A stretch of DNA of 38,871 nucleotides from Candidatus Fermentibacterota bacterium (GTDB lineage: Bacteria > JAFGKV01): positions 1-38,871 of the forward strand of contig JAUXFG010000015.1 of assembly GCA_030620115.1 (NCBI GenBank). The letters run 5' to 3'. The position numbers and the translations under genes are program-made. Below the pieces are notes generated by a model. That model searched no databases. It saw only the letters and a program-made list of their open reading frames with translations, and was not told the DNA's origin. Positions within the stretch are counted from its first letter, which is position 1, and every line of letters begins with the position of its first letter. Shown here one piece after another: positions 7,751 to 28,974 of this stretch.

Positions 7751-7773
7751 TGCAGTCCTCCTGGAAGCGGGAA

Positions 7774-9033
7774 TCAGTCATGGATCGAGCTTCTCTTTGG
7801 GAGCGGCTCATCATGCCTGGCTAACCAGGCGAGATGAAGAAGGCATGCGGTAAGCACGGTACGGAATGCACCCACCAGTACCCCGCCAAGCTTGAGCCTA
7901 TCCAGGAGTTCCATGGGATGAGGCCAACTATCAAACCTAGAAGGTGAGAGCACGGAGAAAAGCAGGACCGATGCTTCGCGATCGAACTGGAAGGTATAGA
8001 ACATCACGCAGACCGCCATGAGCCACGTCAAGGGAACTACCCGATTCCTCGATACCCGCTGAAGCGCAAGAAAGGGTACTGCCCACACGATCCACTGGGG
8101 GTGGAAATAGGTGGATGCGAAAAACCAGTACATCAGCCACGCGCCCCATCGCCACATATCATTTGCTCCGGCAGGACGAGAGGCATCAATAGAAGTCAGA
8201 TAAAGAAGGGCTACGCCCAGCGGAAAGAGGTAGATGACGTCTGCCTGCAGCAATGGCACATACGCCGCGAACAGGAATTTCCTGTGCGGCATGGTAAGCA
8301 GACTCAACAGTTCCGCGCTGTCCCGGAACGCCGCCCATGAGCTCGCCTGTAGAAACTGCAGAACCAGCACCGCGGCGAGAGGAATAACCACCATGGCACA
8401 CAGAGAGAGCCGCTCTCTCTTCCCCGACGGCACGAGCCATAGGTAGAGCGGCACGAGAAGGACGGCGTAGAATCGAAGCAGTGTAGCGAAAACAAGAGCT
8501 ATCAATCCGAGCATGGGCCGCCCACGTGAAAGCGCAAGAATGCAAAGGAGAATGAGAAGTACCGGGAAGCTCTCATACCTTCCATACAGGTGTACGCCGT
8601 AAAGGATGAGTGGGTTGAAAAGCCAGTAGAGAGCCAACGATTTCCTCGAATCAGGCGCCACCATCAGCAAGAGCACGTAGAGCGCGGCCAGTTCGGCAAA
8701 AAGGTAGGGGACCTTCAGCAGTATCAAGAAGACCCACGCATGAGGATGGCCGGCAAGAGCCCTCCAGCCTGTCTCATAGTCAAAGGGCTGGATCCAGAGA
8801 CTCTCAGGGATAAGATGGGCCAAACGAAGCAGCCAGAGCCACACAACATGCACGATGTGCGCAAGAAACTGATTGTGCTCGATAGCCTTTCCATGGTACA
8901 CCGCTTCATGAGCTCGCCAGTAGATGGAGTAGAGATCCCCGTGGAAGCCGATGCCCATGAGAAGCAGCCGTAGGGCGCCTGCAGGCACGAGCCACCATCT
9001 CGGAATGCCGAAAGACTTCATCGCGCTCACCAT
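7774..9033 (-). CDS. Polytopic membrane protein, GT-C-like (DUF2029/GT87-like mannosyltransferase family)
   Basis: The ORF track gives 7774..9504, but the first ~150 codons are low-complexity Arg/Gly-rich and non-protein-like. The start was trimmed to the ATG at 9031–9033 (MVSAMKSF...), directly abutting the stop of the upstream gene. Multi-TM, His/Trp-rich loops. Confidence 0.5.
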   Translation of the reverse strand: MVSAMKSFGIPRWWLVPAGALRLLLMGIGFHGDLYSIYWRAHEAVYHGKAIEHNQFLAHIVHVVWLWLLRLAHLIPESLWIQPFDYETGWRALAGHPHAWVFLILLKVPYLFAELAALYVLLLMVAPDSRKSLALYWLFNPLILYGVHLYGRYESFPVLLILLCILALSRGRPMLGLIALVFATLLRFYAVLLVPLYLWLVPSGKRERLSLCAMVVIPLAAVLVLQFLQASSWAAFRDSAELLSLLTMPHRKFLFAAYVPLLQADVIYLFPLGVALLYLTSIDASRPAGANDMWRWGAWLMYWFFASTYFHPQWIVWAVPFLALQRVSRNRVVPLTWLMAVCVMFYTFQFDREASVLLFSVLSPSRFDSWPHPMELLDRLKLGGVLVGAFRTVLTACLLHLAWLARHDEPLPKRSSIHD

Positions 9034-10622
9034 ATCGTGCTGGGTGACAACCAATCGAAATTGTTCCATAGCCTGACAATCACGTACAAATTGTAGGCAA
9101 TAGCGAGGGCAACCACAACCCCGATCACTCGTCTCATGCGCTTCCCCAGGTGACTGAGCATTGAAGCGGCGACCCCCGTCATGGGAACTATGGTAAGCAT
9201 GAGGTGCTTTGTTTGCCGCCAATCCGTCACCGAAGCGAGGACCCACCCCAGCACCGCCCAGAGGGAGAGAAAACGAAGTCGTCCGCCTTTCCACACACCC
9301 CAGAGTACTCCGACCACTCCAAGCAGCAAGAGTGGCGGTGTGAGATTCCTCGCCCATTCCGCCCACAGTCCACCGATTCCCGGATACCATGCCCCGCCAG
9401 CGCTCCCCAGTGAGAGATCCTGGAACAAGAACCGGTCTCGGAAATCGTAATAGACATGATCTCGGAGGAAGGTGGACCAGTCCACGAGCGCACCGTATGT
9501 CCACCAGAGTGCCGTGCCCATGGCAGCGCCCCGGAGCCAGGGTTGTCTTAACGCCCGGAAAAGACCGGTCTTTCCCTGGATCACAAGATAGACGGCATAG
9601 AGCGCAGGCACGAAGAGCATCTTCTGGTTCGTGAGAGCCAAAAGCATGCCGGTGAACAGCAGCGCTCTGGAAGAGCGACCTTCGCGCCCTAAAAGCAGCA
9701 GGGCCGAAAGGGCCAAGAGGACCGTACTCGGCGCCGTGAACCCGGCATACCCGGCCCGAATCACCACTTCCGGGAGTGTCAGATAGACAAATCCTGCGCC
9801 CAATGCCAAGGTGGCCGAAGCGCCCAATGTCAAGGCAAGATGAGAGAGGAGCAGCGGTGCGATGGCCCCATAGAGGATCGGCAGAAGGCGCGTTGCCCGT
9901 ACCAGACCAAGATTCATATCAAAACACTCGACATCCCTCTTGCGAAACCTCTTGATCGCCCAATGTGCCTCATCACGGAGCTCGACTATTCTGCCGCTCT
10001 GCCAGTAGAAGTATGCCGGTTCAAGCCAGTCCAGGAGCAAGAGACATGCCCCTGCCTGGAGATGATACAGCGGCGGCTTGGAGAAGATGAAAGCGAAGTG
10101 CGTCTCGGTTCCATATGGTTTCCCGTGCTGAAGGTACCCATATGTGGGATTCGCGATCACCATGTCTTGATCCTGCTGCGGAGGAACGATCCACATGGCC
10201 GAGGCATACGTCACCAGGAGACCCGCGGCAAAAAGCGCCAGCACCCTTCTGTCGAGACCAACAAGGGCGTGGATCAATCGACTGCCGAGTTGCCCCACAT
10301 GTCCTGGCCGGGCAACCGTGGCCACCAGCAGCAGAAACCATAAGAAGACCCACGCATGCCAAGAGCATAGATGGAGATCCGAGAGCCGTGCACCGATCAA
10401 CCCCAGGAGCAGAATACCACTGCTGACCGCAGCCGCTTCGGCCCAATATGCCCACGACAAGCGGCGGGGCAGTTTGATGAACAGCAACCCGGGGAACAGC
10501 AAAACCAAACCGGGGATCAAGATGGCGGTGGGGATGCCGAAAGGGACGTAGCGTGAGCACGCGTACGCCAGCCCCAGGGCGACGTGGCTTGCCAGGACGG
10601 CGCTCAGGCGGTTCACCGCCAC
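9027..10622 (-). CDS. Polytopic membrane glycosyltransferase-like protein (GT39/GT83 ArnT/PMT-like GT-C family)
   Basis: 531 aa with ~12 TM helices and a large C-terminal extracytoplasmic portion. Start is 1 nt after the GT2 stop. Confidence 0.55.
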   Translation of the reverse strand: MAVNRLSAVLASHVALGLAYACSRYVPFGIPTAILIPGLVLLFPGLLFIKLPRRLSWAYWAEAAAVSSGILLLGLIGARLSDLHLCSWHAWVFLWFLLLVATVARPGHVGQLGSRLIHALVGLDRRVLALFAAGLLVTYASAMWIVPPQQDQDMVIANPTYGYLQHGKPYGTETHFAFIFSKPPLYHLQAGACLLLLDWLEPAYFYWQSGRIVELRDEAHWAIKRFRKRDVECFDMNLGLVRATRLLPILYGAIAPLLLSHLALTLGASATLALGAGFVYLTLPEVVIRAGYAGFTAPSTVLLALSALLLLGREGRSSRALLFTGMLLALTNQKMLFVPALYAVYLVIQGKTGLFRALRQPWLRGAAMGTALWWTYGALVDWSTFLRDHVYYDFRDRFLFQDLSLGSAGGAWYPGIGGLWAEWARNLTPPLLLLGVVGVLWGVWKGGRLRFLSLWAVLGWVLASVTDWRQTKHLMLTIVPMTGVAASMLSHLGKRMRRVIGVVVALAIAYNLYVIVRLWNNFDWLSPSTIW

Positions 10623-10623
10623 G

Positions 10624-11367
10624 CTATCGCCTGAAGCGCAGCTTGGAGAATCTCAGCCGGAGAATGCCATGGATATCTTCGGACACTGCAGCCTTGATTC
10701 GAACGGTACTCCTCGGATCCTCCACCCACTTCACCGGGATCTCCTTGAGGCGATAGCCATTCTTCTCCGCCAATACCAGCATCTCCGTGTCGAAGAACCA
10801 CTTGGTCCCCTGTATCCGCGGCACAACCTCCGTCACGAAATCCCTGGTGGCAGCTTTGAAACCACACTGCGCGTCGCGGAAATGCACATTGAGGCAGATT
10901 CGAAGAAGCAGGTTGTACCCCCGCGAAAGAATCTCCCGGGCCGGGGACCGTTCTATCTCCGCGGCTGGGTGCAGCCGGCATCCGGTGGAGAGGTCGTATC
11001 CCTCCTCCAGTGATCCTACGAGCTCTTCAAGCGCCTCAAGATCAGTGGACAGGTCGACATCCATGTAGCAAAGAATATCCGCGTCAGAGGCGCTCCATAC
11101 CTGTCGCAAAGCGCGGCCCCGCCCCTTCTCAGGAATCCATACGTACTTCACCTGAGGGAACTCGGCCGCCAACCGCTCTGCGATCATGGGGGTTCCATCT
11201 ATGGATCCATTGTCCGCCACCACCACCCGCCATTGAAAACGAGGGAGGGTTTGCACATGTGACAGCACACGCCGAACGCTCTGTTCAAGGTCACGTTCTT
11301 CGTTGTATACGGGGATCACGATATCAACCGTGGACATTCGATTCATGTTGCTTCCGCTCCCGGTCAC
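10624..11367 (-). CDS. GT2-family polyprenol-phosphate glycosyltransferase (dolichyl-phosphate mannose synthase / Ppm1 / ArnC-like)
   Basis: VDIVIPVYNEE...VVADNGSIDGT...DVDLS motifs (DXD). 247 aa soluble catalytic domain without a TM anchor. Confidence 0.85.
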   Translation of the reverse strand: MTGSGSNMNRMSTVDIVIPVYNEERDLEQSVRRVLSHVQTLPRFQWRVVVADNGSIDGTPMIAERLAAEFPQVKYVWIPEKGRGRALRQVWSASDADILCYMDVDLSTDLEALEELVGSLEEGYDLSTGCRLHPAAEIERSPAREILSRGYNLLLRICLNVHFRDAQCGFKAATRDFVTEVVPRIQGTKWFFDTEMLVLAEKNGYRLKEIPVKWVEDPRSTVRIKAAVSEDIHGILRLRFSKLRFRR

Positions 11368-11388
11368 TGTCTGCCCCCTACTGTGCGA

Positions 11389-12330
11389 TCATTGCGGCGC
11401 CAGCATTGCCTCGACGAAACGTTCGGGGGAAAACGGCTCGATATCATCGATTCCCTCTCCCACGCCAAGCCATCGAACAGGGAGGCCAAGTTCACGAATG
11501 ATAGGGACAACCACACCGCCCTTGGCCGTCCCGTCAACTTTCGCAAGAAAAATGCCGTCAAGCTCCAGGACTTCATGAAACAGCCGTGCCTGTGAAACTG
11601 CGTTCTGTCCTACCGTGGCATCCAATACCAGAAGGGACTCGTGCGGCGCGCCGCTGTGGGCCTTGTTCACTACACGCCGAATCTTGGCAAGCTCGTTCAT
11701 GAGATTGACTTTCGTATGCTGCCGGCCAGCCGTGTCCAGCAATACCACCGAATGGCCACGGGCCTTCGCCGCGGTCACTGCATCAAAGGCGACGCTGGCC
11801 GGATCCGCGCCTGGCTTCTGTGCCACCAGATCCGCCCCGGCCCGCTGTGCCCAGATGGCCAACTGCTCCACCGCCGCCGCGCGAAAGGTGTCCGCCGCGC
11901 CCACCATGACCCGGTGACCTTCTTTCGCATAGTGGCGAGCGAGTTTTCCCAGCGACGTGGTCTTCCCTGAACCGTTCACCCCTGCGATAAGGACCACATA
12001 GGGTGCAACGCGCTCCTCCGGTTCCGCCAGGGGAGGAGGGACAGGCGCGCGCATCAGATCGAGCAACTGCTTTCTAATGACCCCCACAAGCTCTTCCAAA
12101 GACGGTCCGGGGGACGTGCGCAGGTATTCTTCCAACCTGTCTCGAATGATGACTGCCGCCTCCACGCCCACATCAGCCTCGATCAAGCGCTGCTCCAACT
12201 CCTCAAGAGCATGCTCCCGTTCGGCTCCTCGTGTAGTGCGGAGCCGTTCCAGCCCTCTACCGAGTACCTCTCTTGTCCTTCTGAGACCGCCGCGCAGTCT
12301 ACCAAATGCACCTGTCACCATGTTCCGCAC
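11389..12330 (-). CDS. ftsY: Signal recognition particle receptor
   Basis: SRP54-type GTPase: GVNGSGKTTS (G1), DTAGR (G3), NG-domain architecture, 313 aa. Confidence 0.9.
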   Translation of the reverse strand: MRNMVTGAFGRLRGGLRRTREVLGRGLERLRTTRGAEREHALEELEQRLIEADVGVEAAVIIRDRLEEYLRTSPGPSLEELVGVIRKQLLDLMRAPVPPPLAEPEERVAPYVVLIAGVNGSGKTTSLGKLARHYAKEGHRVMVGAADTFRAAAVEQLAIWAQRAGADLVAQKPGADPASVAFDAVTAAKARGHSVVLLDTAGRQHTKVNLMNELAKIRRVVNKAHSGAPHESLLVLDATVGQNAVSQARLFHEVLELDGIFLAKVDGTAKGGVVVPIIRELGLPVRWLGVGEGIDDIEPFSPERFVEAMLAPQ

Positions 12331-12519
12331 CTACATCTATGCCAACATCCAATGTCGAAGAGGGGCTCTTCCATTGTATGTTCGATGTTGGACGTGCGAT
12401 GTTCAATTCCTCACAAGTCTGCAAATCGGCAACCCGCGTCCCGCGGGACAGTAAAATCGTATTCTCGGTCACCAGCCATGATCGCCGGTGACTATGCAGA
12501 GGAAACTTGCCACTCATCA

Positions 12520-12676
12520 TAGGAATCGCAAGGCCCTTTATGATCTTCAAAAGGGTTATCCCGGACTTCTCACCGGCTTTCGTCGCGAAGCGGTGGAGTT
12601 GGCGGTGGCTGTCCCGCACCCAACGCTTTGGGTGCGGGATGAGAAATGCGGGTTATAGGTTATCCCGGACACCCTT
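12520..12676. repeat. REPIN-like composite repeat. Inverted copy of module 'cttcgcgacgaaagccggtgagaagtccgggataaccc' (12553–12590), then perfect hairpin cccgcacccaa-cgct-ttgggtgcggg (12613–12638), then module 'gagaaatgcgggtta'
   Basis: Same modules recur at 31897–31970, 33530–33700, 37540–37590 and 38366–38450. The six-frame track translates them into pseudo-similar peptides (HRFATKAGEK.., HRFETKAGEK.., SRLATKAGEK..) in different frames. Confidence 0.7.
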
Positions 12677-13073
12677 CTCACAAGAGAGATTCCACCGCGT
12701 GATTGCGGCGATTGCGAGAATGGAATGAGGGAAGACTGGCTCCCATCGATGAAACGGACACAAGACTGCCTCGCGCAGTCTCGTTGTTCTACGACTGCAA
12801 TTGTACAACGAAGTAGGACAAGATTCCTCGCCCCCGTGAACCCAAAGTAGATTCCGTCGATCTATACTGCGAACCTCCTGCCTGCAGTAGTCATGAATCT
12901 GTGGAAGTATGAGCCGCTCTTGACATGAGGAACTATCGACATATAGATTCGGCGTCTATCATCTTTTTTCGTACATTGACTGTCTGATGTTCATGTAGAT
13001 GGAGAGCAAGAAACCCCCGTATTGACACAGGCAGTCCGGATGCCACAAGCACTCTTATTGAGGAGGAAATGAT

Positions 13074-13517
13074 ATGGCAAAGACCATGGTTGAAATGGCA
13101 GCGGAGATTGTTGGAGCCCAGGCGGCTTCGGGCAGGATGTCACCGGAGGAACTCTCAAACTCCATCCACAGAGTGTATGATTCATTGGTGGAGGTTCAGA
13201 GAAAAGAGAAGCTGGCGGAGACGGAGCCGGAAGACGTTAGCGGACTGGGGCAGCTTCGGGCTCGACCGGAAAAATCGATTACTCGCGCGCACGTCATCTG
13301 TCTCGAGTGCGGGATGAAGTTCAAGCAGCTCACGGCCAGACATCTGGCGACCCACGGCGTGTCTCCCGCGGATTACCGCGCCAAATGGGGCTTCACCAAG
13401 AGACAACCCCTTGTCGCCAAGCAGCTTTCTGCCCAGCGTCGCAAGACGGCACTGGACAACAAGCTTGGTGAGCGTCTCGCAGAGGCTCGCCGTCAACGTT
13501 TGGCAGAGAGAGGCTAA
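13074..13517 (+). CDS. MucR/Ros-family C2H2 zinc-finger transcriptional regulator
   Basis: ICLECGMKFKQLTARHLATHGVSPADYRAKWG matches the Ros/MucR zinc-finger and DNA-binding signature. GGAGG RBS 7 nt upstream of the ATG. Long AT-rich upstream region with TTGACA-like -35 elements. Confidence 0.85.
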   Translation: MAKTMVEMAAEIVGAQAASGRMSPEELSNSIHRVYDSLVEVQRKEKLAETEPEDVSGLGQLRARPEKSITRAHVICLECGMKFKQLTARHLATHGVSPADYRAKWGFTKRQPLVAKQLSAQRRKTALDNKLGERLAEARRQRLAERG

Positions 13518-13692
13518 CCCTCCGGTTCCCGCGGGCAGAGGCCTGAGCCAAGCTTTGCTCCGAAAGAGGAACAACAGGCGAGAGTGAGGACCAGCCTCGC
13601 AAGGGAGGCCTCTTTCTCGTCTGAAGTGGATGTATCCTCCCGGTACATGCGACCATGGGAGGAGTCCCAAAAATCGAATGAACCGCTCCAAG

Positions 13693-13732
13693 CCGGTCTT
13701 CGGAACTTGCTTCCGGAGACCGGTTTGTCTTT
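13693..13732 (+). terminator. Putative rho-independent terminator: 11-bp stem ccggtcttcgg / ccggagaccgg (one G·U), 9-nt loop, followed by TTTGTCTTT
   Basis: Read directly from the sequence; lies between the mucR-like gene and tatD. Confidence 0.5.
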
Positions 13733-15023: not shown

Positions 15024-16868
15024 ATGCTTCTAGACCAAGCCCACTGTCCGGAGACGCCGGGGCCGGATCGAGACGAACTGGTGACTATACGGAAAGCCCG
15101 CGCATTCTTCCCCCAGGCCAAGGAATTGGCGCTGCTGCGCAGAGCATGCAATACCTGGAGAACCAAGAAGACTGGCGTTGCGCTGGAGATTGACCTGTTC
15201 CCGCCCAAAATTCCCTGCCGCTTCCGGAAAATCTGTGCCATCACCGTGGTATCCGACGACTGGCCTGGCATGGGTGAGACATGCCTTGGCATTGTGCACG
15301 AGCGCGGCTGGAATGTCCACTATGCCCAAGGCATGGTTCTCCAGGAAAACGACCAAGACCTGGGCGTGTTCATCATGGCAATCGGCATTGAATCGGATGA
15401 GGGGCTCCGGCAAATATCCGCGGAGCTCAAGGACATTGAGTCGGAGTTGCTGAGCCTGAGCATTGGAAGGCGTGCGAAAATGCTGCTCATCGCCAAGGAA
15501 GCGAAGAAGCTGGCGCTCCTGAGCAAAGTGGTTGAGGAATTGGCCAAGCTTTCCAGCGGCAAAGAGCTCCAAGAGATCATCGCGCCCATGGGAGAATCGA
15601 CAAAGTTCTTTGCGGCACGGACAGATGAGTACATGCATGCCTGGTCACCGGCGGTGCTGGCATATCAGATCACCACGAACTATGGATTGCTCAAGAAGGT
15701 GCGAGCATCCGGTGGTTTCGGTGTGATCCGAGTAGAGAACTGCCAGGCAGCAAACGAAACAAGAACGTGTATCACCGTGGTGGGCCTCGTACGGGACATA
15801 TCGGTGGAAGAGACGCTCCGGGTCGTGGGTGAGCGCCTGGGGTTCCATGAGCAATACCATTTGATTGAGTTTACGACCCAGGATGGACTCAACCTGGTCC
15901 GCTTGGAAATTGGGCAGGCTGGAGGCCGGGAGCTTTCGGTTGCCCAGGTCAAAGAACTCGAGCTCAGCCTCAAAGAAATGCTCTCGGGCCAGCGGGTTGC
16001 CTGGGCACACAGAATCGAGTCCAGGGGAGGCTTCGAGCAGTATGTCAGAGCAATCATACCATTGCTCCTGAAAGAACATGCAGCCACCGGGCTCCCTCAA
16101 GTATATATGTCCCCCACGTCACGCGAGAAGACCGTGGCGAGTTTCAAGGTGATCTTTGTTTATTCTACGCCCGTCGGCCAAACCGCACCGTCGATACGCC
16201 TCCCAGAGTTGTTGCAGGTACTGCCCGGTGTCCAGGTCGTCTCGTCATCGAGTCCAAGGATCATGGGGGATCAGCGTCTGTTCGTCATGAACATCAATGT
16301 TGATCTCACCAAATTCAAGGATACCGAGGACATCTATCACACATTGCGAAAGCAGGTTCACGAGGTCTTCTCGGAATTCCGTGATTTCGATGAGGGAATG
16401 CGCCTCGGTGACATGACGAAGCTCAAGGAAATCGAGGATGCGCTCTCCGGGTATGACCTACGAATCGTGAGTAGGATCTACTACGCCATCGATGATTTCT
16501 CGCGGCTCAGCATGAGCCGGGATGAAATCGTCCGCCTTCTTCGGCTTGGACTGTCGGCTCTCTCTGAACTGGATGCGCGAACCGAACCCGATCCCTCGCC
16601 CGTGATCTATGATGAACGACTCAAGAATCATCATGGAGAGGTGATCTCGGCGCTGTTGGCAATCGTCTCGCCCCAGGGACGGGGTATCCCGAGCTGCATT
16701 CGAGAATTATCATCGCAGGCCCAGGTCACCGTCAGTCAGATCCGGCATGGCGACGGCGAGCTCCTCTTGTGCCGCATCACGGGCATGGGAGGAAATCCTC
16801 CCGATGAGTCCGCGATACAGGATGTCCTCCAGTGTATTGCGGGGATGCAGTGTCACGACTGGCACTAA
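15024..16868 (+). CDS. Hypothetical protein built from ~4 ACT-like (βαββαβ) regulatory repeats; no catalytic domain recognised
   Basis: Repeated segments such as ITVVSDDWPGMGETCLGIVHERGWNVHYAQ, CITVVGLVRDISVEETLRVVGERLGF and KVIFVYSTPVGQ...VQVVSSS. GAGGAGG RBS upstream of the ATG. Confidence 0.55.
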   Translation: MLLDQAHCPETPGPDRDELVTIRKARAFFPQAKELALLRRACNTWRTKKTGVALEIDLFPPKIPCRFRKICAITVVSDDWPGMGETCLGIVHERGWNVHYAQGMVLQENDQDLGVFIMAIGIESDEGLRQISAELKDIESELLSLSIGRRAKMLLIAKEAKKLALLSKVVEELAKLSSGKELQEIIAPMGESTKFFAARTDEYMHAWSPAVLAYQITTNYGLLKKVRASGGFGVIRVENCQAANETRTCITVVGLVRDISVEETLRVVGERLGFHEQYHLIEFTTQDGLNLVRLEIGQAGGRELSVAQVKELELSLKEMLSGQRVAWAHRIESRGGFEQYVRAIIPLLLKEHAATGLPQVYMSPTSREKTVASFKVIFVYSTPVGQTAPSIRLPELLQVLPGVQVVSSSSPRIMGDQRLFVMNINVDLTKFKDTEDIYHTLRKQVHEVFSEFRDFDEGMRLGDMTKLKEIEDALSGYDLRIVSRIYYAIDDFSRLSMSRDEIVRLLRLGLSALSELDARTEPDPSPVIYDERLKNHHGEVISALLAIVSPQGRGIPSCIRELSSQAQVTVSQIRHGDGELLLCRITGMGGNPPDESAIQDVLQCIAGMQCHDWH

Positions 16869-16917
16869 CGCACACTTCCTTGTCCGAGACTCCACTCGTC
16901 ATACACACCCCTGATCA

Positions 16918-17886
16918 GTGAACTGGCGTTTCTCCTGGTATCTGAAGAGGCTTCCTGGAAAGTCTCCTCCCCACTACCTCAATTTGGAACCGACGAATCG
17001 GTGCAACCTTTCGTGCATCTGGTGCGTGGCTTCATCGGCTCGACCGCAGGGGTTCCTCGAGCTTGCGCTGGCCCAACGCGTGCTTGATCAGGCTGCTTCC
17101 GCGGGTGTACGGGAGATCCGCTTTTTTCTTGCAGGCGAACCGTTGCTTCATCCCAAGATCCATGAGCTGGTCTCCATGGCCAAGATCCGGAAGCTCAGGA
17201 CCGTGATTCACAGCAATGCAATGCTTCTCACCCGAGAGAAGAGCAAAGCCCTGATTTCCGCCGGTCTCGACGAAATCTCATTCAGCGTGAACGGCCTCAC
17301 TCATGAGGAAATCAGTCAAAACCAGCCCGGCGCCGAGCTTGATGTGATGGTTTCGCACATCCACGACTTCCTGACGCAAAAACGAGACACAAGCTCTTCT
17401 TTTCCCTTGGTTATCCTCCAAATCATACAGCATCCCACTGAATTGGGAAAACCGCTGGACCGAGACAGGATAAAGGCCTTGTTTGGTGAGCCTGGCCCCG
17501 ATCGGATTCTCCGCCTTGCCCCCCATTCCTGGGCCGGCCAGCTTTCCGGCGATGCCGCGGCTGCGCGAGGAACGCGATATCATCCCTGTCAGCCTCTCTG
17601 GCAGGGCATGAGCGTGGCGTGGGATGGACGAGTGTTCCTCTGCTGTGGAGATCTGAACGGCAGGGTGGTAATTGGTGACCTCAGACAAGAGCAGCTCATG
17701 GATGTATGGAACGGTCAACGATTGAACAAAATAAGACAACACGTGGTAAAGAATGATCGGAGCGCACTTGCTCTCTGTTCCGGATGCGATGCCCTCTGGT
17801 GGCACACGCATCCTCTGAGCCATGACCTAAGAAGAGCCGGCTGGAGAGTGCTCGGCAGGGTTCTCCACAAGACCAAGGGATTTTGA
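16918..17886 (+). CDS. Radical SAM enzyme with C-terminal SPASM/twitch-like auxiliary cluster domain
   Basis: CNLSCIWC (CX3CX2C) at residues ~29–36; C-terminal CQ...CCGDLNG...CSGC cysteine cluster; GTG start; 322 aa. Confidence 0.8.
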   Translation: MNWRFSWYLKRLPGKSPPHYLNLEPTNRCNLSCIWCVASSARPQGFLELALAQRVLDQAASAGVREIRFFLAGEPLLHPKIHELVSMAKIRKLRTVIHSNAMLLTREKSKALISAGLDEISFSVNGLTHEEISQNQPGAELDVMVSHIHDFLTQKRDTSSSFPLVILQIIQHPTELGKPLDRDRIKALFGEPGPDRILRLAPHSWAGQLSGDAAAARGTRYHPCQPLWQGMSVAWDGRVFLCCGDLNGRVVIGDLRQEQLMDVWNGQRLNKIRQHVVKNDRSALALCSGCDALWWHTHPLSHDLRRAGWRVLGRVLHKTKGF

Positions 17887-17899
17887 GAAGGAGAATTCA

Positions 17900-19726
17900 A
17901 TGAAGGAACAGATCCGCCGGGTTCTCTGTCGCTTCCAGGGTGGAGCCACTCCTGCGCTTCGTGGATCATCTTCCGCCTTCTGGATGATATGCGCAGCGCT
18001 CTCGCTTCTCGCCTGTTCCGACAAGAAGGGCCCTCGCCTGGTAATCCTGGGGCTTGACGCAGCGAACTGGGTATCCATGGAACCTCTTCTGGAGGAGGGG
18101 CTTCTCCCCAACCTCTCTCGACTCATTCGAGAGGGCGCCGCGGGCTCATTGTCTACTTTTATTCCCACCGCTTCCCCAGCCATTTGGACCACTATTGCCA
18201 CCGGCCAGTCTCCCGACAAGCATGGTATCGCTTTTCGCGTGCTCCAGATAGGAGAAGGGAAACCCGGGGAGGAGATGCTCGCCGCTATCAGCTCTGATGA
18301 GCGGGAGGTCAAGGCGCTGTGGAACCTCTTCACGGATTACGGCATCCAGAGTGCATTCATCGGCTGGTGGGCAACATGGCCCGCGGAAAAGATCCTTGGA
18401 TATGTGGTTTCTGACAAGGTGTATGAACCCCGGCTCAAACGGACCACATTCCCGACGGATCTTCGCAACAAACTTGCCCGGCAGGGTCTGCTTGAACAAG
18501 GATTGCCGCCCGAGCAGAAGGCTTGGTTTCGAAGGTTGCGGGGTGAGTTCAATGCATGGCGTCAAAACGTGGAAGAGGGAAGAACGCGGTGGACGGGGAC
18601 TGCCCCAAACGTAAAACGTTACTTCCAAGATCTCGAGGAGAAACTCCAAGCATACCGCCGAATAATGGCATTGGACTACCGCACAGAGCTGATTACGCAT
18701 CACCTGATGGATACTGATCCACCCGTCGAAGTCATTGCACCGTATTTCTGGTACATGGATATCTGCCAGCACATATTCTGGAAATACTGGAAGCCGGAAG
18801 GCTTCGACATCGACGAGAAAGAATTGGAGATCTTCGGAAAACTTGTTCCCCACTACTACGAGTTCATTGATGAGGTCGTCGGCAGGATCCTCGATCATGC
18901 CGGTCGCCATGCTATGGTTGTTGTCGTTTCAGACCATGGCATGGAAAGCTACTACTCGGACGCGTATGTCAACGATCTCTTCGATGTCGAAGGCGTGCTT
19001 GTCGACCTTGGCTGGTCGACCCGCGGTGCGGACAGGCGCCCGGATCTTGCACGATCAAAGGCTTATGTGAAGGCTGGGTCTCGACAGATGCGCCTCATCA
19101 ACCTCTCGGTGCAGGGACGTGAGCCGCACGGCAAAATCCAGGAGAAGGATCGGGCAGCGATGGTGGAGACGTTGGCCGAACAGCTCAAATCACTCAAGAC
19201 ACGGGCCTCTTCGAGACCTCTCTTCAACGAGGTGAGGATCCTGGGTGATTCGGAACAGAGCTATTCCACAGGCGGCTTTGTCTACTATGTCTTCGAACGC
19301 GCGGATCTCGCCTTGACTCTTAATAATCATGTGGATCTCGATGATTCCTTGAATGTCGCGGGAAAGGTCTTTCCATTGTCCCGTTGGAACAAGTGGCGCC
19401 CGTCGATCACGGGGCATCATTCCATGGCGCCCGCAGGCATCGTCATACTCAAAGGAGCTCCCTTTCAACGAGGCGCACGCCTTGAGAATGCGCGGGTCCA
19501 CGATGTTACTCCCACGATCATGGCCGCCTTTGGCCTCCCGGTGGCGGAGGATCTTGAAGGAAGAGTACTTGCCGAGGGCTTTAGGCAAGCGTTCTTCGAG
19601 AACAGCCCCGTTATCTCGATTCCCGGCTATGGCGCCAGGGCCGCCTTTGTAAAAGAGGGCATTCTGGAGGGCAGTGCGGACGACGCGCTCATCCAGCAGT
19701 TGAAGGCAATCGGCTACATACGGTGA
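17900..19726 (+). CDS. Alkaline-phosphatase-superfamily enzyme of the NPP / type I phosphodiesterase family; predicted lipoprotein
   Basis: LVILGLDAANW metal-binding start; IPTASPAIWTTIATGQSPDKHGI nucleophile region resembling the NPP TxP...TG...HG signature; VVVSDHGME. Signal peptide with lipobox LLAC. AGGAGA RBS. Confidence 0.8.
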   Translation: MKEQIRRVLCRFQGGATPALRGSSSAFWMICAALSLLACSDKKGPRLVILGLDAANWVSMEPLLEEGLLPNLSRLIREGAAGSLSTFIPTASPAIWTTIATGQSPDKHGIAFRVLQIGEGKPGEEMLAAISSDEREVKALWNLFTDYGIQSAFIGWWATWPAEKILGYVVSDKVYEPRLKRTTFPTDLRNKLARQGLLEQGLPPEQKAWFRRLRGEFNAWRQNVEEGRTRWTGTAPNVKRYFQDLEEKLQAYRRIMALDYRTELITHHLMDTDPPVEVIAPYFWYMDICQHIFWKYWKPEGFDIDEKELEIFGKLVPHYYEFIDEVVGRILDHAGRHAMVVVVSDHGMESYYSDAYVNDLFDVEGVLVDLGWSTRGADRRPDLARSKAYVKAGSRQMRLINLSVQGREPHGKIQEKDRAAMVETLAEQLKSLKTRASSRPLFNEVRILGDSEQSYSTGGFVYYVFERADLALTLNNHVDLDDSLNVAGKVFPLSRWNKWRPSITGHHSMAPAGIVILKGAPFQRGARLENARVHDVTPTIMAAFGLPVAEDLEGRVLAEGFRQAFFENSPVISIPGYGARAAFVKEGILEGSADDALIQQLKAIGYIR

Positions 19727-20805
19727 CTAAAGTCTCCCGCGGTCGGTTGCTTCGAGCCGGTGCACTCCATCTGCAAAGGAATCTGCTGGCAACCCTTTCT
19801 ACGCGCCGAACTACACCTCTCGGTCCCCCGCTCTACCTGGCGTTGGGCATCACAAAGCGGTGCAACTCGAAATGTTTGTACTGCGACCTCTGGCGCGCGG
19901 ATTCCACGGCTGAACTTGGGATCCATGAGTGGACGGCAATCATCAATGAGGCGGCAGCCTGGGTGGCGCCGGCCCATGTCTCCATTGCAGGCGGTGAGCC
20001 ATTCCTCCGCCCGGATCTTGGCGCCATCGTTCTGGCAGCACACGAGGCTGGTCTCTTGCCTTCGGTTGTCACCAACGGTACTCTCCTGCCGCCGCACAGA
20101 ATCAAAGAGGTGGCCTCGTGGCCCCTGGCATCGCTGACCATCTCTATTGACTCGCTCTCTCCGGAGCCCCATGACCGTATTCATGGCCTGCCGGGCACGC
20201 ACCACAAGGCCATGGCTGCGTTGAGAGGTCTCCTCCAGCGGGGCATGGGGCCCCGGCTGCGGGTTGCCGCCGTGATCACGGGCTTCAACATTCACGATCT
20301 TTTACCCCTTGCGCAATGGGTATTCGACCAGGGAATCGGCGGCTTCACTGTGCAACCATTGGGGGAGCCGTTCGAGCGCACCCGCGACCCCTCCTGGTAT
20401 GAAAAGTCACCGCTCAGACTGACCGACCCCCAGGACGTAAAGCCTCTGGTCGAGAGCCTGAAACAGTTAAAAACCAAAGGATGCCCCGTCATGAATCCCG
20501 CCAGACAACTGGATGCACTCCCCGTTTATTACGAGAATCCGGAGCGGGGGCTCTTCCTCCCGTGTCGTGTCGGCAGCACTACCTTGGGGATCGGCCCTGG
20601 CGGCGATCTTCGCTTCTGCCCGTACCATCCACCCTTTGGTCAGTGGGGTGCAGGCCCCCTCCGCGATCAATGGGTCAGCGCCACCGCGGCTTCAGCCCGC
20701 ACCAAGATCCTGAAATGCGCCCGAGGCTGCAGCATCATGAACTGCACTTTCAACCCAACTCTGGGGGAGCGTGTTGTCCGTTGGAAGAGAGCTTTGGCCT
20801 GGTGA
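19723..20805 (+). CDS. Second radical SAM enzyme with full SPASM-like C-terminal domain
   Basis: CNSKCLYC (CX3CX2C); C-terminal C...GDLRFC...CARGCSIMNC. GTG start overlapping the stop of the upstream gene (GTGA). Confidence 0.8.
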   Translation: MTKVSRGRLLRAGALHLQRNLLATLSTRRTTPLGPPLYLALGITKRCNSKCLYCDLWRADSTAELGIHEWTAIINEAAAWVAPAHVSIAGGEPFLRPDLGAIVLAAHEAGLLPSVVTNGTLLPPHRIKEVASWPLASLTISIDSLSPEPHDRIHGLPGTHHKAMAALRGLLQRGMGPRLRVAAVITGFNIHDLLPLAQWVFDQGIGGFTVQPLGEPFERTRDPSWYEKSPLRLTDPQDVKPLVESLKQLKTKGCPVMNPARQLDALPVYYENPERGLFLPCRVGSTTLGIGPGGDLRFCPYHPPFGQWGAGPLRDQWVSATAASARTKILKCARGCSIMNCTFNPTLGERVVRWKRALAW

Positions 20806-21808
20806 AGTGAGACACCCATTGTTTACCGACGAGAGGACACTTCCTTCGCTGGATGGCGAACCGAAACTGAAACTGTCGATACTCATCGTGAATACCAATA
20901 GCAAGGAGCTTCTTCTTGCGTGTCTCCAATCGATCTACGCCACCGTACGTGCCATCCCCTACGAGATCATCGTGGTCGACAATGCATCTACCGACGGATC
21001 GGTTGAGGCCGTGCGCGACCGGTTCCCCAAGGTGCTTCTTATTGAGAACGACTACAACAACTGGTTCACCGGGGGAACCAACCAGGCAACACTCGCCAGC
21101 ACGGGCGAGTATCTGCTCTGCCTCAATCCCGATACGATCTGTCATGAAGAGGCCATCGATGCCCTGGTGACCTTCCTCGATGACCACCCCAAGGTTGGTG
21201 TCGTCGGCCCGAAACTACTGAATGGCGACGGAACGCTCCAGCCTTCGTGTCGCAACTTCCTGACGAACCGGCGCTTGGTGCTGCAGCACTTCTTCCCTTG
21301 GCGAAAAACGCCAAATGCTTGGCGGAAGAGGACGGTTCTCGAATACTGGGACCACGACGAGACCACAGAAGTCGATTGGCTGATCGGCGCGTGTATCCTT
21401 GTACGACGAACTGCCGTGGAGTTGGTGGGCCTCAAAGACGAGGGCTACCCTATCTTCCATGAGGAAACGGACTGGTGTTACCGCCTCAAACAAGCGGGAT
21501 GGGAGACTTGGTTTCTCCATCATGCCCAGATCGTTCATTTCGGGAGCCAAACAGTGGGAAAACTGTGGGGGCGCGGGCTTGTCTTGGAGTTCTACAAGGG
21601 CAAGCACCGTTTCATCAGAAAGCATTACGGGAATACCGCGCTGCTCTTTCATCGTATGCTCATCTCTTGCCTGCTCCTTGCGAGGCTTGTGAAATCCTCG
21701 CTTCTTGGAGCCCTACCTATGGGTACTATGCACAGGGAACAGATCCCAATCCTGCTGCAGGCCATAGCCCTTCAACTGGGCGCCTATCGCAGAAGGCGGG
21801 TCGAGTAA
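20771..21808 (+). CDS. GT2-family glycosyltransferase (rhamnosyl/β-glycosyltransferase-like, Glyco_tranf_2_3 type)
   Basis: LSILIVNTNS...IIVVDNASTDGS...LNPDT (DXD). Start uncertain: the ATG at 20771 overlaps the previous gene by 35 nt; an in-frame TTG at about 20816 is an alternative. Confidence 0.8.
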   Translation: MLSVGRELWPGEVRHPLFTDERTLPSLDGEPKLKLSILIVNTNSKELLLACLQSIYATVRAIPYEIIVVDNASTDGSVEAVRDRFPKVLLIENDYNNWFTGGTNQATLASTGEYLLCLNPDTICHEEAIDALVTFLDDHPKVGVVGPKLLNGDGTLQPSCRNFLTNRRLVLQHFFPWRKTPNAWRKRTVLEYWDHDETTEVDWLIGACILVRRTAVELVGLKDEGYPIFHEETDWCYRLKQAGWETWFLHHAQIVHFGSQTVGKLWGRGLVLEFYKGKHRFIRKHYGNTALLFHRMLISCLLLARLVKSSLLGALPMGTMHREQIPILLQAIALQLGAYRRRRVE

Positions 21809-21816
21809 GGAGAAGC

Positions 21817-22953
21817 ATGGGCACAGATTCCTATCTCAAGGCGGTGGAACGCGTACTCAGTGAACTTCCCAGGGAACAGGTGGATCAACTTGTGGAGGTA
21901 TTGGCAAAGGCGCGAACCCTCCGCCGCCAGGTTTTTCTTATGGGAAATGGCGGATCGGCAGCCACCGCTTCACACATTGCCTGTGACCTTGGCAAAGGAA
22001 CGGTCAGACCCGACAAGAAGCGCTTTCGCGTTACCGCGTTGACCGACAACGTACCACTCATGACTGCCTGGGCAAACGACACGTCGTACGACATGGTTTT
22101 CGTGGAGCAGCTCTCGGGGTGCATCCAGCCGGGAGACGTCGTGATTGCCCTCAGCGGAAGCGGCAACTCGCCGAATGTCCTCAAAGCCATCGAGTATGCG
22201 GCGTCAGCCGGCGCAACTACTGTTGGCCTCACAGGGTATGATGGAGGGCGCCTGGCCCGATTGGTCGACCACGCGGTGATCGTTTCGGATAACTGCATGG
22301 AGAGAATAGAAGATGTTCACCTGGTGCTCGGCCATGCCGTGGCCGCCGCCCTGAGAGACATCATCGCCCAAGAGCCTGTGCCCAGCAGAGATCGGGTGGT
22401 CTTTCTCGACAGGGATGGTGTCATCAATCAACTGGCGCCGGACAATGGATACGTCACTTCTTGGGAGGATTTCCGATTCCTTCCCGGGGCTCTCGATGCC
22501 ATTGCTCGACTCACAAGAAGTGGATTCCGCATTGTGGTAGTCACCAATCAAAGCTGTATCGGCCGGGGCCTTGCGACCCATGAAGATATCCGACTCATCC
22601 ACAGAATCATGGAGGAGAGAATAGAGGAAGTCGGCGGAAGAATAGAAGCGGTGTACTATTGTCCGCATAAGCCTGATGACGGCTGTTCGTGCAGAAAACC
22701 AAAACCCGGCCTTTTTCTTGCCGCGCAGGAAGACCTTGGTATCGATCTCGTGCAATCCATAGTGATTGGGGATAGCCTATCAGACCTGCAGGCAGTGGAG
22801 AAAATCCACGGGACGTCTCTCCTTGTCCGCACGGGCCACGGTTCTGACACAATGGCGCAACTCGGACCGGGGGTAGTGCAACCATCGGCCATCGCCCATG
22901 ACGTGGGCGAGGCGGCAGAATGGATCCTTGAGAAGAGAGCCCCGCCGGGATAA
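21817..22953 (+). CDS. Bifunctional SIS-domain phosphoheptose isomerase (GmhA-like) fused to HAD-family D,D-heptose 1,7-bisphosphate phosphatase (GmhB-like)
   Basis: N-terminal half: FLMGNGGSAATASHIACDL...ALSGSGNSPNV (SIS). C-terminal half: VFLDRDGVIN...YCPHKPDDGCSCRKPKPG...IGDSLSDL (HAD IIIA/GmhB with Cys-cluster zinc site). Start trimmed from the track's 21475 to ATG 21817, which has an AAGGAG RBS directly after the GT2 stop. Confidence 0.8.
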   Translation: MGTDSYLKAVERVLSELPREQVDQLVEVLAKARTLRRQVFLMGNGGSAATASHIACDLGKGTVRPDKKRFRVTALTDNVPLMTAWANDTSYDMVFVEQLSGCIQPGDVVIALSGSGNSPNVLKAIEYAASAGATTVGLTGYDGGRLARLVDHAVIVSDNCMERIEDVHLVLGHAVAAALRDIIAQEPVPSRDRVVFLDRDGVINQLAPDNGYVTSWEDFRFLPGALDAIARLTRSGFRIVVVTNQSCIGRGLATHEDIRLIHRIMEERIEEVGGRIEAVYYCPHKPDDGCSCRKPKPGLFLAAQEDLGIDLVQSIVIGDSLSDLQAVEKIHGTSLLVRTGHGSDTMAQLGPGVVQPSAIAHDVGEAAEWILEKRAPPG

Positions 22954-23027
22954 CCTCGCATCTCTCCCCGGGTACCAATACATTTGCGGGTTCGTAATTG
23001 AAACCATGACCATATCAGGAGGATTGA

Positions 23028-23948
23028 ATGTTGCAGAAGGATCTTCTTTCCATTGATCGCATGACAAAGGAAGACGTTGCCGACCTGCTGAAGGCGGCCC
23101 ACGAGATGAAGACACTCTACAAAGGGGGAGGGACGGTCGACTCCCTCAAGGGCAAGGTCCTTGCCATGCTCTTCGCAAAGCCAAGCCTTCGAACCCGAGT
23201 GAGTTTTGAGGTCGCTGCCGTGCAACTGGGAGGCCATGCCATGTACATCACCCATGGCGAGGTGGGGCTCGGCAAACGAGAAGCGGTTTGTGACGCGGCA
23301 CGGGTTCTTTCCCGCATGGTGGATGGCATCATGATCCGGACCTTTGCCCAAAGCGAGGTGGAGGAGCTCGCTGCACATGCCTCGGTACCGGTCATCAATG
23401 GACTCACCGACCGGTACCATCCTTGTCAGGTGCTTGCCGATCTCATGACCGTTGAGGAAGCATTCGGAAGCCTTGAGGGCATCCGAATCACCTATATCGG
23501 GGACGGGAACAATGTCGCGCACAGCCTGATCCACGGCGCAAGAAGAACCCCGATCCACCTCACTCTGGTGACGCCAGAGGGCTACGAGCCCAACAAGGAG
23601 CTCGTGGATGCAGGCAAGACGGAGATCGGTGATCGTCTCCGGGTGCTCCATGATGCCACAGAGGGAGCCAAAGGCGCTCATGTCATCTACACCGACGTGT
23701 GGGCTAGCATGGGCCAGGAATCAGAGCGACAGAAGCGGCTGAACGATTTCGCGGGATATCAGGTACAGGAAACGCTCCTGGAGAAGGCTGATCCCGGCGT
23801 CAGGGTGATGCACTGTTTGCCGGCACATCGGGGAGAAGAGATCACCGACGAGGTCATGGACGGCGCCCATGCACTCATGTTTGATCAAGCGGAGAACCGT
23901 CTTCACCTGCAGCGGGCATTGCTCCACATACTCATGGGAGCGCAGTGA
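23028..23948 (+). CDS. argF: Ornithine carbamoyltransferase
   Basis: SLRTRVSFE (STRT carbamoyl-phosphate site), HPCQ, HCLPAHRGEE; 306 aa; AGGAGG RBS. Confidence 0.95.
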   Translation: MLQKDLLSIDRMTKEDVADLLKAAHEMKTLYKGGGTVDSLKGKVLAMLFAKPSLRTRVSFEVAAVQLGGHAMYITHGEVGLGKREAVCDAARVLSRMVDGIMIRTFAQSEVEELAAHASVPVINGLTDRYHPCQVLADLMTVEEAFGSLEGIRITYIGDGNNVAHSLIHGARRTPIHLTLVTPEGYEPNKELVDAGKTEIGDRLRVLHDATEGAKGAHVIYTDVWASMGQESERQKRLNDFAGYQVQETLLEKADPGVRVMHCLPAHRGEEITDEVMDGAHALMFDQAENRLHLQRALLHILMGAQ

Positions 23949-27876: not shown

Positions 27877-28959
27877 TCAATTGCGTGCCAGGAAAACAAT
27901 GGCTCCTACGATCACAAGCGCCACACCTACCGCCAAGGCAATCTTCCACGCGGACCACGGCCGTTCTCCTTGCACCTCCCCGGTCCGTCCATTGATCAGG
28001 AAGCGGTACACTTTGTCCCGATACCGATAAGCGCTGATCCATATGGGCAAAAGGATATGCTTGAACGTGATGTTATCGTGTTGGGTCTTGACCGAATGGA
28101 TGCGCTGGTGATCTCCGCCGATATCAGCCCGGATGGTGTGCCTGATCTGGCCATCCATGATCTCCTTGCCCCGATCGAACCCCGCGGCGAGATCAACCTT
28201 GTATGACTCAGCCTGAAATCCACTGATGTACTCATCCTGGTATAACACGAGGTTCTCGAGATCCCACGGTTCGAGGCTGGCGGTCTTGTCCGGCGGCAAT
28301 GACTCGCTTGCCAAGACCAGCACATCGTCGAATGTGTTCCACACAACACCGCTCACCGGGGCCCATCTCGTTTTCCTGACCTGGCGTGTCCGGGTTACCA
28401 TATTGCCGTTCGAGTCCTTGGTTCGGTACGTCTCAGTCACATAGTAGTCAGTACCCCGCTCACCCGTGTAATGACTTGTGGTGGCGCAGTCGAATGTCCA
28501 ATAGGGAATGTACATCCCCTTGAGGTTCCCCTCGCTCCGGGCGTACCTTTTTAACTTGTTGGGTGCGAATCGAAGCTTCTTGATCCATTGACTGAATCGC
28601 TCGTGTGCCTCCCATTTCGCAACTTTGAACGGCAAGAGGGCCTTTGGCTTGATGATCCTTTGCACATGCGCTTTGTCCATCAACTGGCTGCCGCAGAAGG
28701 GACAATGACTGGTGGTGATATGAGGATCAACGGTAGATTCTGCCCCGCATGACCGGCAAAGTACCGTCCTGCGCTCTACCGTCTCTTCTTCATCCAGGAC
28801 CGAGGTCAAATACTCATTGAAATCCAGTTCCTTTATATCTGCTTCAGATTGTGGGATCTGATTCTCGGCATCACAGTAGGGACACTTGAGAGATGCTGCG
28901 CCCGGGGAGAACTCGAGCATGGCACCGCAGGAGCCACAGGGGAATTGTTTGGCACTCAT
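27877..28959 (-). CDS. Double zinc-ribbon protein with C-terminal TM anchor (YdjG/YdjH-like partner of the SPFH protein)
   Basis: CGSCGA...CPYCD and CRSCGA...CPFCGS zinc ribbons; C-terminal hydrophobic helix WKIALAVGVALVIVGAIVFL. Begins 14 nt after the SPFH gene stop. Confidence 0.6.
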   Translation of the reverse strand: MSAKQFPCGSCGAMLEFSPGAASLKCPYCDAENQIPQSEADIKELDFNEYLTSVLDEEETVERRTVLCRSCGAESTVDPHITTSHCPFCGSQLMDKAHVQRIIKPKALLPFKVAKWEAHERFSQWIKKLRFAPNKLKRYARSEGNLKGMYIPYWTFDCATTSHYTGERGTDYYVTETYRTKDSNGNMVTRTRQVRKTRWAPVSGVVWNTFDDVLVLASESLPPDKTASLEPWDLENLVLYQDEYISGFQAESYKVDLAAGFDRGKEIMDGQIRHTIRADIGGDHQRIHSVKTQHDNITFKHILLPIWISAYRYRDKVYRFLINGRTGEVQGERPWSAWKIALAVGVALVIVGAIVFLARN

Positions 28960-28974
28960 CGTTCAAGCACTGTG

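Follow-up and report, generated by a model that had tools for sequence, protein, structure and literature searches.

We analyzed a 38,871-nucleotide stretch of DNA from a Candidatus Fermentibacterota bacterium (assembly GCA_030620115.1, contig JAUXFG010000015.1; here called the window), in which six genes, O1 to O6, follow one another on the plus strand. They encode, in order, a protein that resembles four successive ACT domains at fold level only (O1, 15024 to 16868); a radical S-adenosylmethionine (SAM) protein with a predicted twitch-type auxiliary-cluster domain (O2, 16918 to 17886; 322 amino acids [aa]); a lipoprotein of the nucleotide pyrophosphatase/phosphodiesterase (NPP) branch (PF01663) of the alkaline phosphatase (AlkP) superfamily (O3, 17900 to 19726; 608 aa); a second radical SAM protein, with a predicted abbreviated SPASM or twitch-like C terminus (O4, 19723 to 20805; 360 aa); a family 2 glycosyltransferase (GT2; O5, 20771 to 21808; 345 aa, or 333 aa if translation starts at GTG 20807); and a protein composed of a GmhA-like half and a GmhB half (O6, 21817 to 22953; 378 aa). 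An earlier annotation made from the DNA letters without database searches (the sequence-only reading) had described six co-directional genes here, and all six open reading frames (ORFs) are present. We consider O1 to O6 to be genes rather than chance ORFs because orthologues of all six, at 50 to 76% identity, lie in the same order in at least seven independent contigs. Although the O6 frame runs open from 21475, the gene really begins at ATG 21817, which lies behind AAGGAG.

Two translational overlaps had been proposed. The GTGA joining the O3 stop to the O4 start lies exactly at 19723 to 19726 and is also kept in five other loci. No ATGA exists near 20771, where the second had been placed; instead, O5 may start at GTG 20771, which lies behind GGGGGAG and gives a 35-nt overlap with O4, or at GTG 20807, 1 nt past the O4 stop. 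Tight spacing behind ribosome-binding sites holds for O2/O3 (13-nt gap) and O5/O6 (8-nt gap), each with an AGGAG-type site, but not for O1/O2, where the gap is 49 nt and no ribosome-binding site was visible on direct reading; in orthologous loci, the O1/O2 spacing is only 3 to 18 nt. More than six genes make up this co-directional, tightly packed run, which reaches from a Ros/MucR gene (13074) to ispH (26666), with Ros/MucR and TatD upstream of O1 and argF, a Big_5 lipoprotein gene, and ispH downstream of O6. Thus, spacing alone defines no pathway. The TatD-O1 gap is 347 nt here and 37 nt in a related locus, L001, and all other junctions from O1 to O6 are ≤49 nt. Because the TatD-O1 gap holds only unconserved mechanical ORFs, we agree that no precursor peptide is evident, and we rejected a ribosomally synthesized, posttranslationally modified peptide cluster with a SPASM maturase, since no precursor-peptide ORF adjoins a maturase gene.

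O3 is an NPP-branch lipoprotein, as had been recognized. Its only family match is PF01663 (84.9 bits; cutoff, 23), and its hydrophobic leader is followed by a lipobox (ALSLLAC39SD), whose Cys has an equivalent in the orthologues as read from their sequences. The AlphaFold2 model (predicted local distance difference test [pLDDT] score, 87.9; predicted template modeling score, 0.84) has the NPP fold: the top 50 Protein Data Bank (PDB) matches returned by Foldseek are all NPP, ENPP, or autotaxin structures, led by the Xanthomonas (Xac) NPP (E = 3.7e-14; TM score of 0.61 on the target). Invariant or nearly invariant positions in 38 family members are D53, S92(-P93), W96, T97, T101-G102, H108-G109, D287, H291, S344-D345-H346-G347, and H507; the six two-metal ligands (D53, D287, H291, D345, H346, and H507) are all conserved, and an SPxxWTT motif is invariant across the family. 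The nucleophile had been sought in a TASP sequence, which is the right region; however, the predicted nucleophile is Ser92, not Thr90, which is not conserved. Ser92 aligns with the single position that differs between two PhnA entries, Thr in 3szy and Ala in 3t02, which we take to be the T64 nucleophile and its T64A variant. O3 therefore has Ser in place of the usual NPP Thr. Sequence and model thus predict that O3 is exported, has the NPP fold, keeps the whole two-metal site, and uses Ser as its nucleophile.

Both radical SAM proteins match PF04055 above its gathering threshold: O2 scores 59.9 bits for Radical_SAM and 52.7 bits for SPASM, and O4 scores 70.4 bits for Radical_SAM. The N-terminal CX3CX2C motif that had been read in each is invariant in orthologue alignments (C29/C33/C36 in O2; C47/C51/C54 in O4), as is a G90-G91-E92 SAM motif in O4; the C-terminal cysteine array, however, has five conserved residues, not seven. 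In O2 these are C224, C242, C243, C287, and C290, with the spacing C224-X12-G237-X4-C242(C243)...C287-X2-C290, which is that of a BtrN-type, four-Cys twitch domain and matches the pattern predicted for a single auxiliary [4Fe-4S] cluster, CX(9-15)GX4C...CX2C. In O4 (C281, C299, C332, C336, and C341) the spacing is a variant of this pattern, C281-X12-G294-X4-C299...C332-X3-C336-X4-C341. By these patterns, both arrays are classed as abbreviated SPASM (twitch-type) domains.

The best solved relative of O2 by sequence is BtrN (4m7s; 3.6e-12), and that of O4 is the cytosylglucuronate decarboxylase BlsE (7vob; 3.6e-16), followed for the two proteins by PqqE, SuiB, MoaA, and DesII; the anaerobic sulfatase-maturating enzyme (anSME) is not among the solved radical SAM structures that either matches. 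We judged NCBIfam matches from the best 25 of 51 for each protein. These include no anSME model, are led by generic SPASM families, and score 35 to 91 bits against cutoffs of 170 to 725, by which we rejected membership in the families of the W-cofactor maturase, NirJ/Ahb, PqqE, MftC, BlsE, and "rSAM_w_lipo" (TIGR04133); the BlsE model, TIGR04466, for example, gives 55.6 bits with O4 and 40.2 bits with O2 (cutoff, 400). Distant O4 relatives and the fusion proteins described below likewise fail to reach NCBIfam cutoffs. The hidden Markov model (HMM) comparison that had been suggested to place the two proteins thus found no characterized family that claims either. O2 was found only in the Fermentibacteria/Eisenbacteria form of the cluster.

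The closest named relatives, at 50 to 76% protein identity, belong to Candidatus Fermentibacteria and to one Candidatus Eisenbacteria metagenome-assembled genome; in these relatives, the whole Ros/MucR-to-IspH block is syntenic, reaching FtsY in L001. More informative loci lie outside this group. L005 and L006 share the order Polysacc_synt (Wzx-type) flippase, AlkP, radical SAM, PMT_2 GT-C transferase, GT2, and HAD, in which the AlkP, radical SAM, and GT2 proteins are orthologous to O3, O4, and O5 (41, 38, and 58% identity, respectively) and the AlkP stop again overlaps the radical SAM start; neither locus has counterparts of O1, O2, or O6. In L096, Wzz and Wzy_C genes are followed by a radical SAM gene (35% identity to O4), a PF01663 gene, two PMT_2 genes, a family 4 glycosyltransferase (GT4) gene, and a GT2 gene. 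The PF01663 proteins of L096 have N-terminal regions with multiple transmembrane segments and carry the motifs SPxxWT, DxxxH, and DHG, as in O3. L096 also contains a second set in the same Wzz/Wzy locus (positions 1 to 2662: a radical SAM/SPASM protein, a SAM methyltransferase, and a membrane-anchored PF01663 protein) and a third PF01663 gene at its end.

We ran AlkP and O4 family HMMs over 98 loci: an AlkP-family ORF adjoins an O4 relative only where the O4 profile score is ≥330 bits, and none of the approximately 80 weaker O4 relatives has an AlkP neighbor. Whether the radical SAM-AlkP adjacency recurs in other genomes had been put forward as a check; it is conserved in three clades, with the start/stop overlap in two of them. 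The gene orders indicate that the conserved core is O3-O4-O5 and that, outside Fermentibacteria, it is located in Wzx/Wzy-type surface polysaccharide loci. A scan of genome contigs with the O4 alignment yielded only two true orthologous loci and three remote matches, while a metagenome scan yielded mostly O4 relatives of about 25% identity with mixed neighborhoods.

An exhaustive search of 1.84 billion representative sequences with a profile of 17 O4 orthologues recovered 816 proteins at E ≤ 1e-30; on sequence similarity, O4 belongs to a large, uncharacterized clade. At least 12 of the best 150 representatives combine a GT2 domain and an O4-type radical SAM domain in a single chain; the GT2 is O5-like by BLAST in 11 of them, and nine have a second radical SAM/SPASM domain between the two. 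This three-domain layout, GT2 followed by about 300 aa, radical SAM/SPASM, and O4-type radical SAM, was seen by Pfam plus BLAST in at least nine representatives (examples are P0180, P0183, P0184, P0193, P0198, P0199, and P0261), whereas P0214, P0216, and P0278 have GT2 and the O4-type domain without the middle domain; single chains of radical SAM-GT2 and of two or three radical SAM domains are also found among the top matches. The C-terminal domain of the fusions is of O4 type (185 to 236 bits over the full profile). We considered the middle domain as a possible O2 orthologue and rejected this, because neither the O2 nor the O4 profile gives it more than a weak score, so that it is of a different type. 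The GT2-radical SAM/SPASM-radical SAM/SPASM chains P0180, P0183, P0184, and P0199 are 1,130 to 1,490 aa long.

The genomic contexts of the clade point in the same direction as the fusions. The locus of P0183, from Omnitrophota, encodes a WecA-like initiating transferase, a carbamoyltransferase, Wzm/Wzt ABC export, several GT4 and GT2 proteins, and radical SAM-SPASM-GT4 fusions. A standalone O4 relative in Brocadiia lies between GT4 genes, together with genes for a GT2, a UDP-sugar dehydrogenase, AsnB-like amidotransferases, and a polysaccharide deacetylase; that locus has no AlkP gene. From the fusions and contexts, it follows that the O4 clade is tied to glycosyltransferases and polysaccharide assembly and not to AlkP proteins in general. 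It is quite possible, if not quite probable, that the clade is a large family of radical SAM enzymes that tailor glycans in fixed association with GT2 and catalyze new sugar chemistry. An O-antigen-like Wzm/Wzt locus of Omnitrophota, L097, encodes both a GT2-radical SAM-radical SAM chain and a radical SAM-SPASM-GT4 fusion (10001 to 13540 and 21904 to 23540), as well as a carbamoyltransferase and an SxtJ-like protein; no curated family covers fusion proteins of this type.

O5 was correctly called a GT2 (PF00535, 76.9 bits). It is the most conserved member of the core, being 58% identical to its counterpart in L005/L006, 51% to the one in L096, and 29 to 36% to the GT2 domains of the fusion proteins; its best NCBIfam match, the rhamnosyltransferase model TIGR01556, is far below cutoff. 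O6 is a fusion, as had been read, and joins a SIS half resembling GmhA (sedoheptulose-7-phosphate isomerase) to a HAD-IIIA half of GmhB type (D,D-heptose-1,7-bisphosphate 7-phosphatase). Residues 189 to 372 match solved GmhB at 3e-38, and the GmhB model NF006506 is matched above cutoff (188.8 versus 178 bits). Residues 12 to 180 match solved phosphoheptose isomerases at 1.6e-24, and the related SIS protein DiaA at about 7e-20; the GmhA model TIGR00441 scores 107.4 bits against a cutoff of 209. O6 is a lineage-specific accessory gene outside the conserved core; its position is taken by an unrelated HAD gene in L005/L006 and by nothing in L096.

As for O1, it has no Pfam, NCBIfam, or PDB sequence match, so its description as a protein with four ACT domains is right at the level of fold but lacks sequence-family support. 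Its AlphaFold2 model (24 homologues; pLDDT, 82.7) shows four beta-beta-alpha-beta-beta modules, each followed by long helices. In Foldseek, the model best matches the N-terminal, ACT*-bearing part of L-GDH180 from mycobacteria (7jsr; E = 1e-12), whose ACT* topology is described in PMC8175468; several other ACT and ACT-like proteins also match at high probability. O1 is probably a ligand-binding or regulatory protein. In Acidobacteriota and other phyla, the genes around its homologues (about 30% identity) are unrelated to those here; for this reason its membership in a pathway with O2 to O6 is doubtful, and it would be at most a lineage-specific regulator. The O1 family (P0154 to P0172 and the gene at 15024 to 16868) consists of standalone proteins of about 600 aa with the fourfold ACT*-like architecture, found in several phyla and varied contexts and covered by no Pfam model.

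On the strength of these sequence comparisons, we think it reasonably probable that the O3-O4-O5 core is a module that produces or tailors a surface glycan or a lipid-linked glycoconjugate, O2 being a further radical SAM partner and O6 a source of precursor in this lineage. The sequence-only reading had offered sugar-acting twitch/SPASM enzymes working with the GT2 as one option; we favor it in view of the O4-GT2 fusions in other phyla and the polysaccharide loci in which the clade lies, but the heptose substrate proposed there is a guess, and the link to heptose is weak because O6 does not belong to the conserved core and the window has no gene for a heptose kinase or nucleotidyltransferase. 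The scheme that follows is inferred as regards the substrate, what each radical enzyme does chemically, and which bond O3 attacks. In the cytoplasm, O5 would transfer a sugar to a glycan acceptor that is lipid linked or still growing; in this lineage, that sugar may be a heptose formed with the help of O6. The twitch-type enzymes O2 and O4 would abstract a C-H hydrogen of a sugar in a tailoring step of the kind carried out by BtrN, BlsE, or DesII; oxidation to a keto-sugar, epimerization, decarboxylation, and deoxygenation are all conceivable outcomes. O3, after export, would use its Ser92 two-metal site at the outer face of the inner membrane to cleave or transfer a phosphodiester- or pyrophosphate-linked group on the glycan or on its polyprenyl carrier.

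Several observations weigh against this interpretation. It does not explain in detail the strict O3-O4 pairing in the closest subclade. The syntenic Fermentibacteria block includes the housekeeping genes TatD, argF, and ispH, so conservation inside that phylum alone proves little. Distant O4 relatives (about 25% identity) have heterogeneous neighbors (GH10, UbiD/UbiA, Bac_transf, GT2, and AT3-SGNH). O2 and O4 resemble BtrN and BlsE mostly across the N-terminal radical SAM core that these proteins have in common, with scores far below family cutoffs, and these matches are therefore leads, not assignments. Finally, the window contains neither the heptose kinase and nucleotidyltransferase genes mentioned above nor flippase or PMT_2 genes, for which we searched with the L005 and L096 homologues.

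Known systems resemble parts of the proposed glycan module. O2 and O4 share with BtrN (2-deoxy-scyllo-inosamine dehydrogenase), BlsE, and DesII a CX3CX2C core and a carbohydrate biosynthesis context, and O2 has the CX(n)GX4C...CX2C single auxiliary-cluster pattern of BtrN; however, the known enzymes act on antibiotic intermediates, whereas O2 and O4 would act on glycan- or lipid-linked sugars, and none of the known ones is coupled to a GT2 or an NPP-like ectoenzyme. BcsG, OpgB, EptA/B, and LtaS are also extracytoplasmic AlkP-superfamily enzymes encoded with surface-polymer glycosyltransferases, and their arrangement of an N-terminal region with multiple transmembrane segments and an external catalytic domain is shared by the L096 homologues of O3. 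Those enzymes, in contrast, belong to the PF00884 branch and use a Thr/Ser nucleophile to move phosphoethanolamine or phosphoglycerol from lipids, whereas O3 belongs to the PF01663/NPP branch and is lipid anchored. As to the nucleotide-heptose pathway (GmhA, HldE or HddA/HddC, and GmhB), O6 holds its 7-phosphatase and probably its isomerase; unlike in that pathway, the two are fused, are encoded outside the conserved core, and lack the kinase and nucleotidyltransferase partners in the window. Surface glycan loci with tailoring enzymes are of a known kind; what is new is the combination of enzymes and, as proposed, the radical chemistry. The sequence-only reading had recognized no described pathway in this combination, and neither the combination nor GT2-radical SAM-radical SAM proteins are described in the curated families or in the literature that we searched, in which subscription journals are incompletely covered.

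A quite different proposal, made by analogy with anSME, is that O4, and perhaps O2, modifies O3 in the cytoplasm before its export, creating a new cofactor-like residue in an NPP-type enzyme. The gene arrangement lends itself to this: AlkP genes adjoin O4 relatives only when these are close to O4, and do so in all three clades with available flanks; the O3 stop/O4 start overlap persists in six loci across about 40% sequence divergence; and L096 has two separate radical SAM-AlkP pairs. An exported target with a cytoplasmic maturase is also the layout of Ser-type sulfatases, and anSME/AtsB systems likewise place a SPASM-family radical SAM gene beside the gene of an exported AlkP-superfamily protein. 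The proteins themselves tell otherwise. NPP and alkaline phosphatase enzymes with a two-metal site and a Ser/Thr nucleophile work without modification, and formylglycine enzymes are single-metal enzymes; O3 has the NPP fold with six two-metal ligands and a Ser-Pro at the nucleophile and matches PF01663, whereas sulfatases belong to PF00884 and have one metal and a (C/S)xPxR motif. The formylglycine motif (C/S)-x-(P/A)-x-R is absent from O3, whose nucleophile region reads P-T-A-S92-P-A-I-W, with no Arg at +4. Ser92-Pro93 is just as invariant in relatives that lack a radical SAM neighbor, such as P0018, around which (locus L007) a 10-kb stretch is free of radical SAM genes. The radical SAM-linked clades have no conserved residue of their own; the Cys of DICQH, for example, is Val in L005/L006. 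On the side of the radical SAM proteins, O2 and O4 have five auxiliary cysteines against the seven or eight (two auxiliary clusters) of anSME and are similar to it in the common core only; anSME is missing from their PDB sequence matches and from the NCBIfam matches judged; and the O4 clade is mostly without AlkP neighbors and is fused to GT2 glycosyltransferases but never to an AlkP or recognizable peptide-binding domain. With adjacency its only support, we consider an anSME-like maturation quite unlikely. The more specific claim that a dedicated O4 installs a new posttranslational modification in the NPP-type ectoenzyme O3 is very doubtful; we retain it because of the strict, translationally coupled O3-O4 pairing in three clades, which is the sole evidence for it. 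If true, it would mean that the anSME/formylglycine principle also operates in a second branch of the AlkP superfamily.

The proposed surface-glycan module could be narrowed or broken up in two other ways. Instead of a polymer, the GT2 and radical SAM proteins might produce the head group of a glycolipid or a glycosylated, diffusible metabolite, with O3 acting as a lipid phosphodiesterase. The folds nearest to O3 do include the lipid-phosphodiester hydrolases ENPP6, ENPP7, and autotaxin; UbiA, UbiD, and acyl-CoA ligase genes lie near some distant O4 relatives; and the window has no polymerase, flippase, or chain-length genes. Moreover, known pairs of GT2 and radical SAM proteins, such as MftF and MftC of mycofactocin, make small molecules, and O5 matches MftF weakly. 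Yet genes typical of polymers (Wzx, Wzz, Wzy, and PMT_2) are present in the two core contexts outside Fermentibacteria, and the fusion protein that we examined belongs to a Wzm/Wzt O-antigen-type locus. The likeness to mycofactocin ends with the presence of SPASM-family radical SAM and GT2 genes in one cluster: the precursor peptide, MftB, and MftD/E are missing, and the scores are far below cutoff (MftF, 46.5 bits versus 280; MftC, 55.7 versus 265). We hold this explanation to be unlikely. Alternatively, there may be no single six-gene pathway, and synteny at the level of the phylum would merely hold O1, O2, and O6 beside the O3-O4-O5 core, O6 being a general supplier of heptose (for the lipopolysaccharide core) and O1 an unrelated regulator. 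This fits with the unrelated neighbors of O1 homologues elsewhere, with the absence of O6 and O2 from L005/L006, and with the TatD, argF, and ispH genes in the same conserved co-directional block. It fits less well with the 3- to 18-nt O1/O2 spacing in orthologous loci and the 8-nt O5/O6 gap with its ribosome-binding site, or with the radical SAM-radical SAM and GT2-radical SAM-radical SAM fusions, which show that paired radical SAM domains are common in the O4 clade. As to O1, it overlaps with the reading that we favor; as a whole, we find it rather unlikely.

Other features of the window and of related loci deserve mention. A 17-bp GC-rich hairpin followed by a T-rich tail (13689 to 13727, plus strand) lies 170 nt past the Ros/MucR gene, and the co-directional run has no other strong terminator-like site; counts of promoter and terminator consensus sequences showed no excess over shuffled sequence, and an Rfam scan matched no element. 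On the minus strand at 6362 to 11367, a gene for a small soluble GT2 (10624 to 11367; 247 aa) is followed by genes for three proteins of 460 to 580 aa with eight or nine predicted transmembrane segments and no Pfam match, and the equivalent position of L001 has three unannotated genes (455, 424, and 518 aa), also without a Pfam match. These proteins may be unrecognized GT-C-type transferases or polymerases and could supply membrane steps that the O1-O6 cluster lacks. Also encoded on the minus strand are a B12-binding radical SAM protein unrelated to O2 and O4 (31965 to 33506; 513 aa), an IS200-like Y1 transposase domain fused to a DnaA C-terminal helix-turn-helix (33817 to 34782; 321 aa), and an SPFH/Band_7_1 protein with a C-terminal GYF_2 domain (27877 to 30120), which lies beside a multi-zinc-ribbon protein. 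Downstream of IspH in L001 (19034 to 21767) and L002 (16223 to 18824) are genes for a lysine-2,3-aminomutase-like radical SAM protein, a GNAT acetyltransferase, and an ATP-grasp ligase (two in L001); the aminomutase-like and GNAT genes resemble those for the osmolyte N-epsilon-acetyl-beta-lysine.

The sequences, then, do not favor the sulfatase-maturase analogy. To our knowledge, radical SAM chemistry on bacterial surface polysaccharides is almost unexplored. The O4 clade, with its 816 representatives, is tied to glycosyltransferases by gene fusion and conserved gene order, and a subclade of it is tied further to an exported NPP-like phosphodiesterase. The phyla concerned (Fermentibacteria, Eisenbacteria, Omnitrophota, and Brocadiia) are without cultured representatives, and in them this clade may offer an entry point both to a new sugar-tailoring reaction and to a role for PF01663 ectoenzymes in the assembly of envelope glycans.

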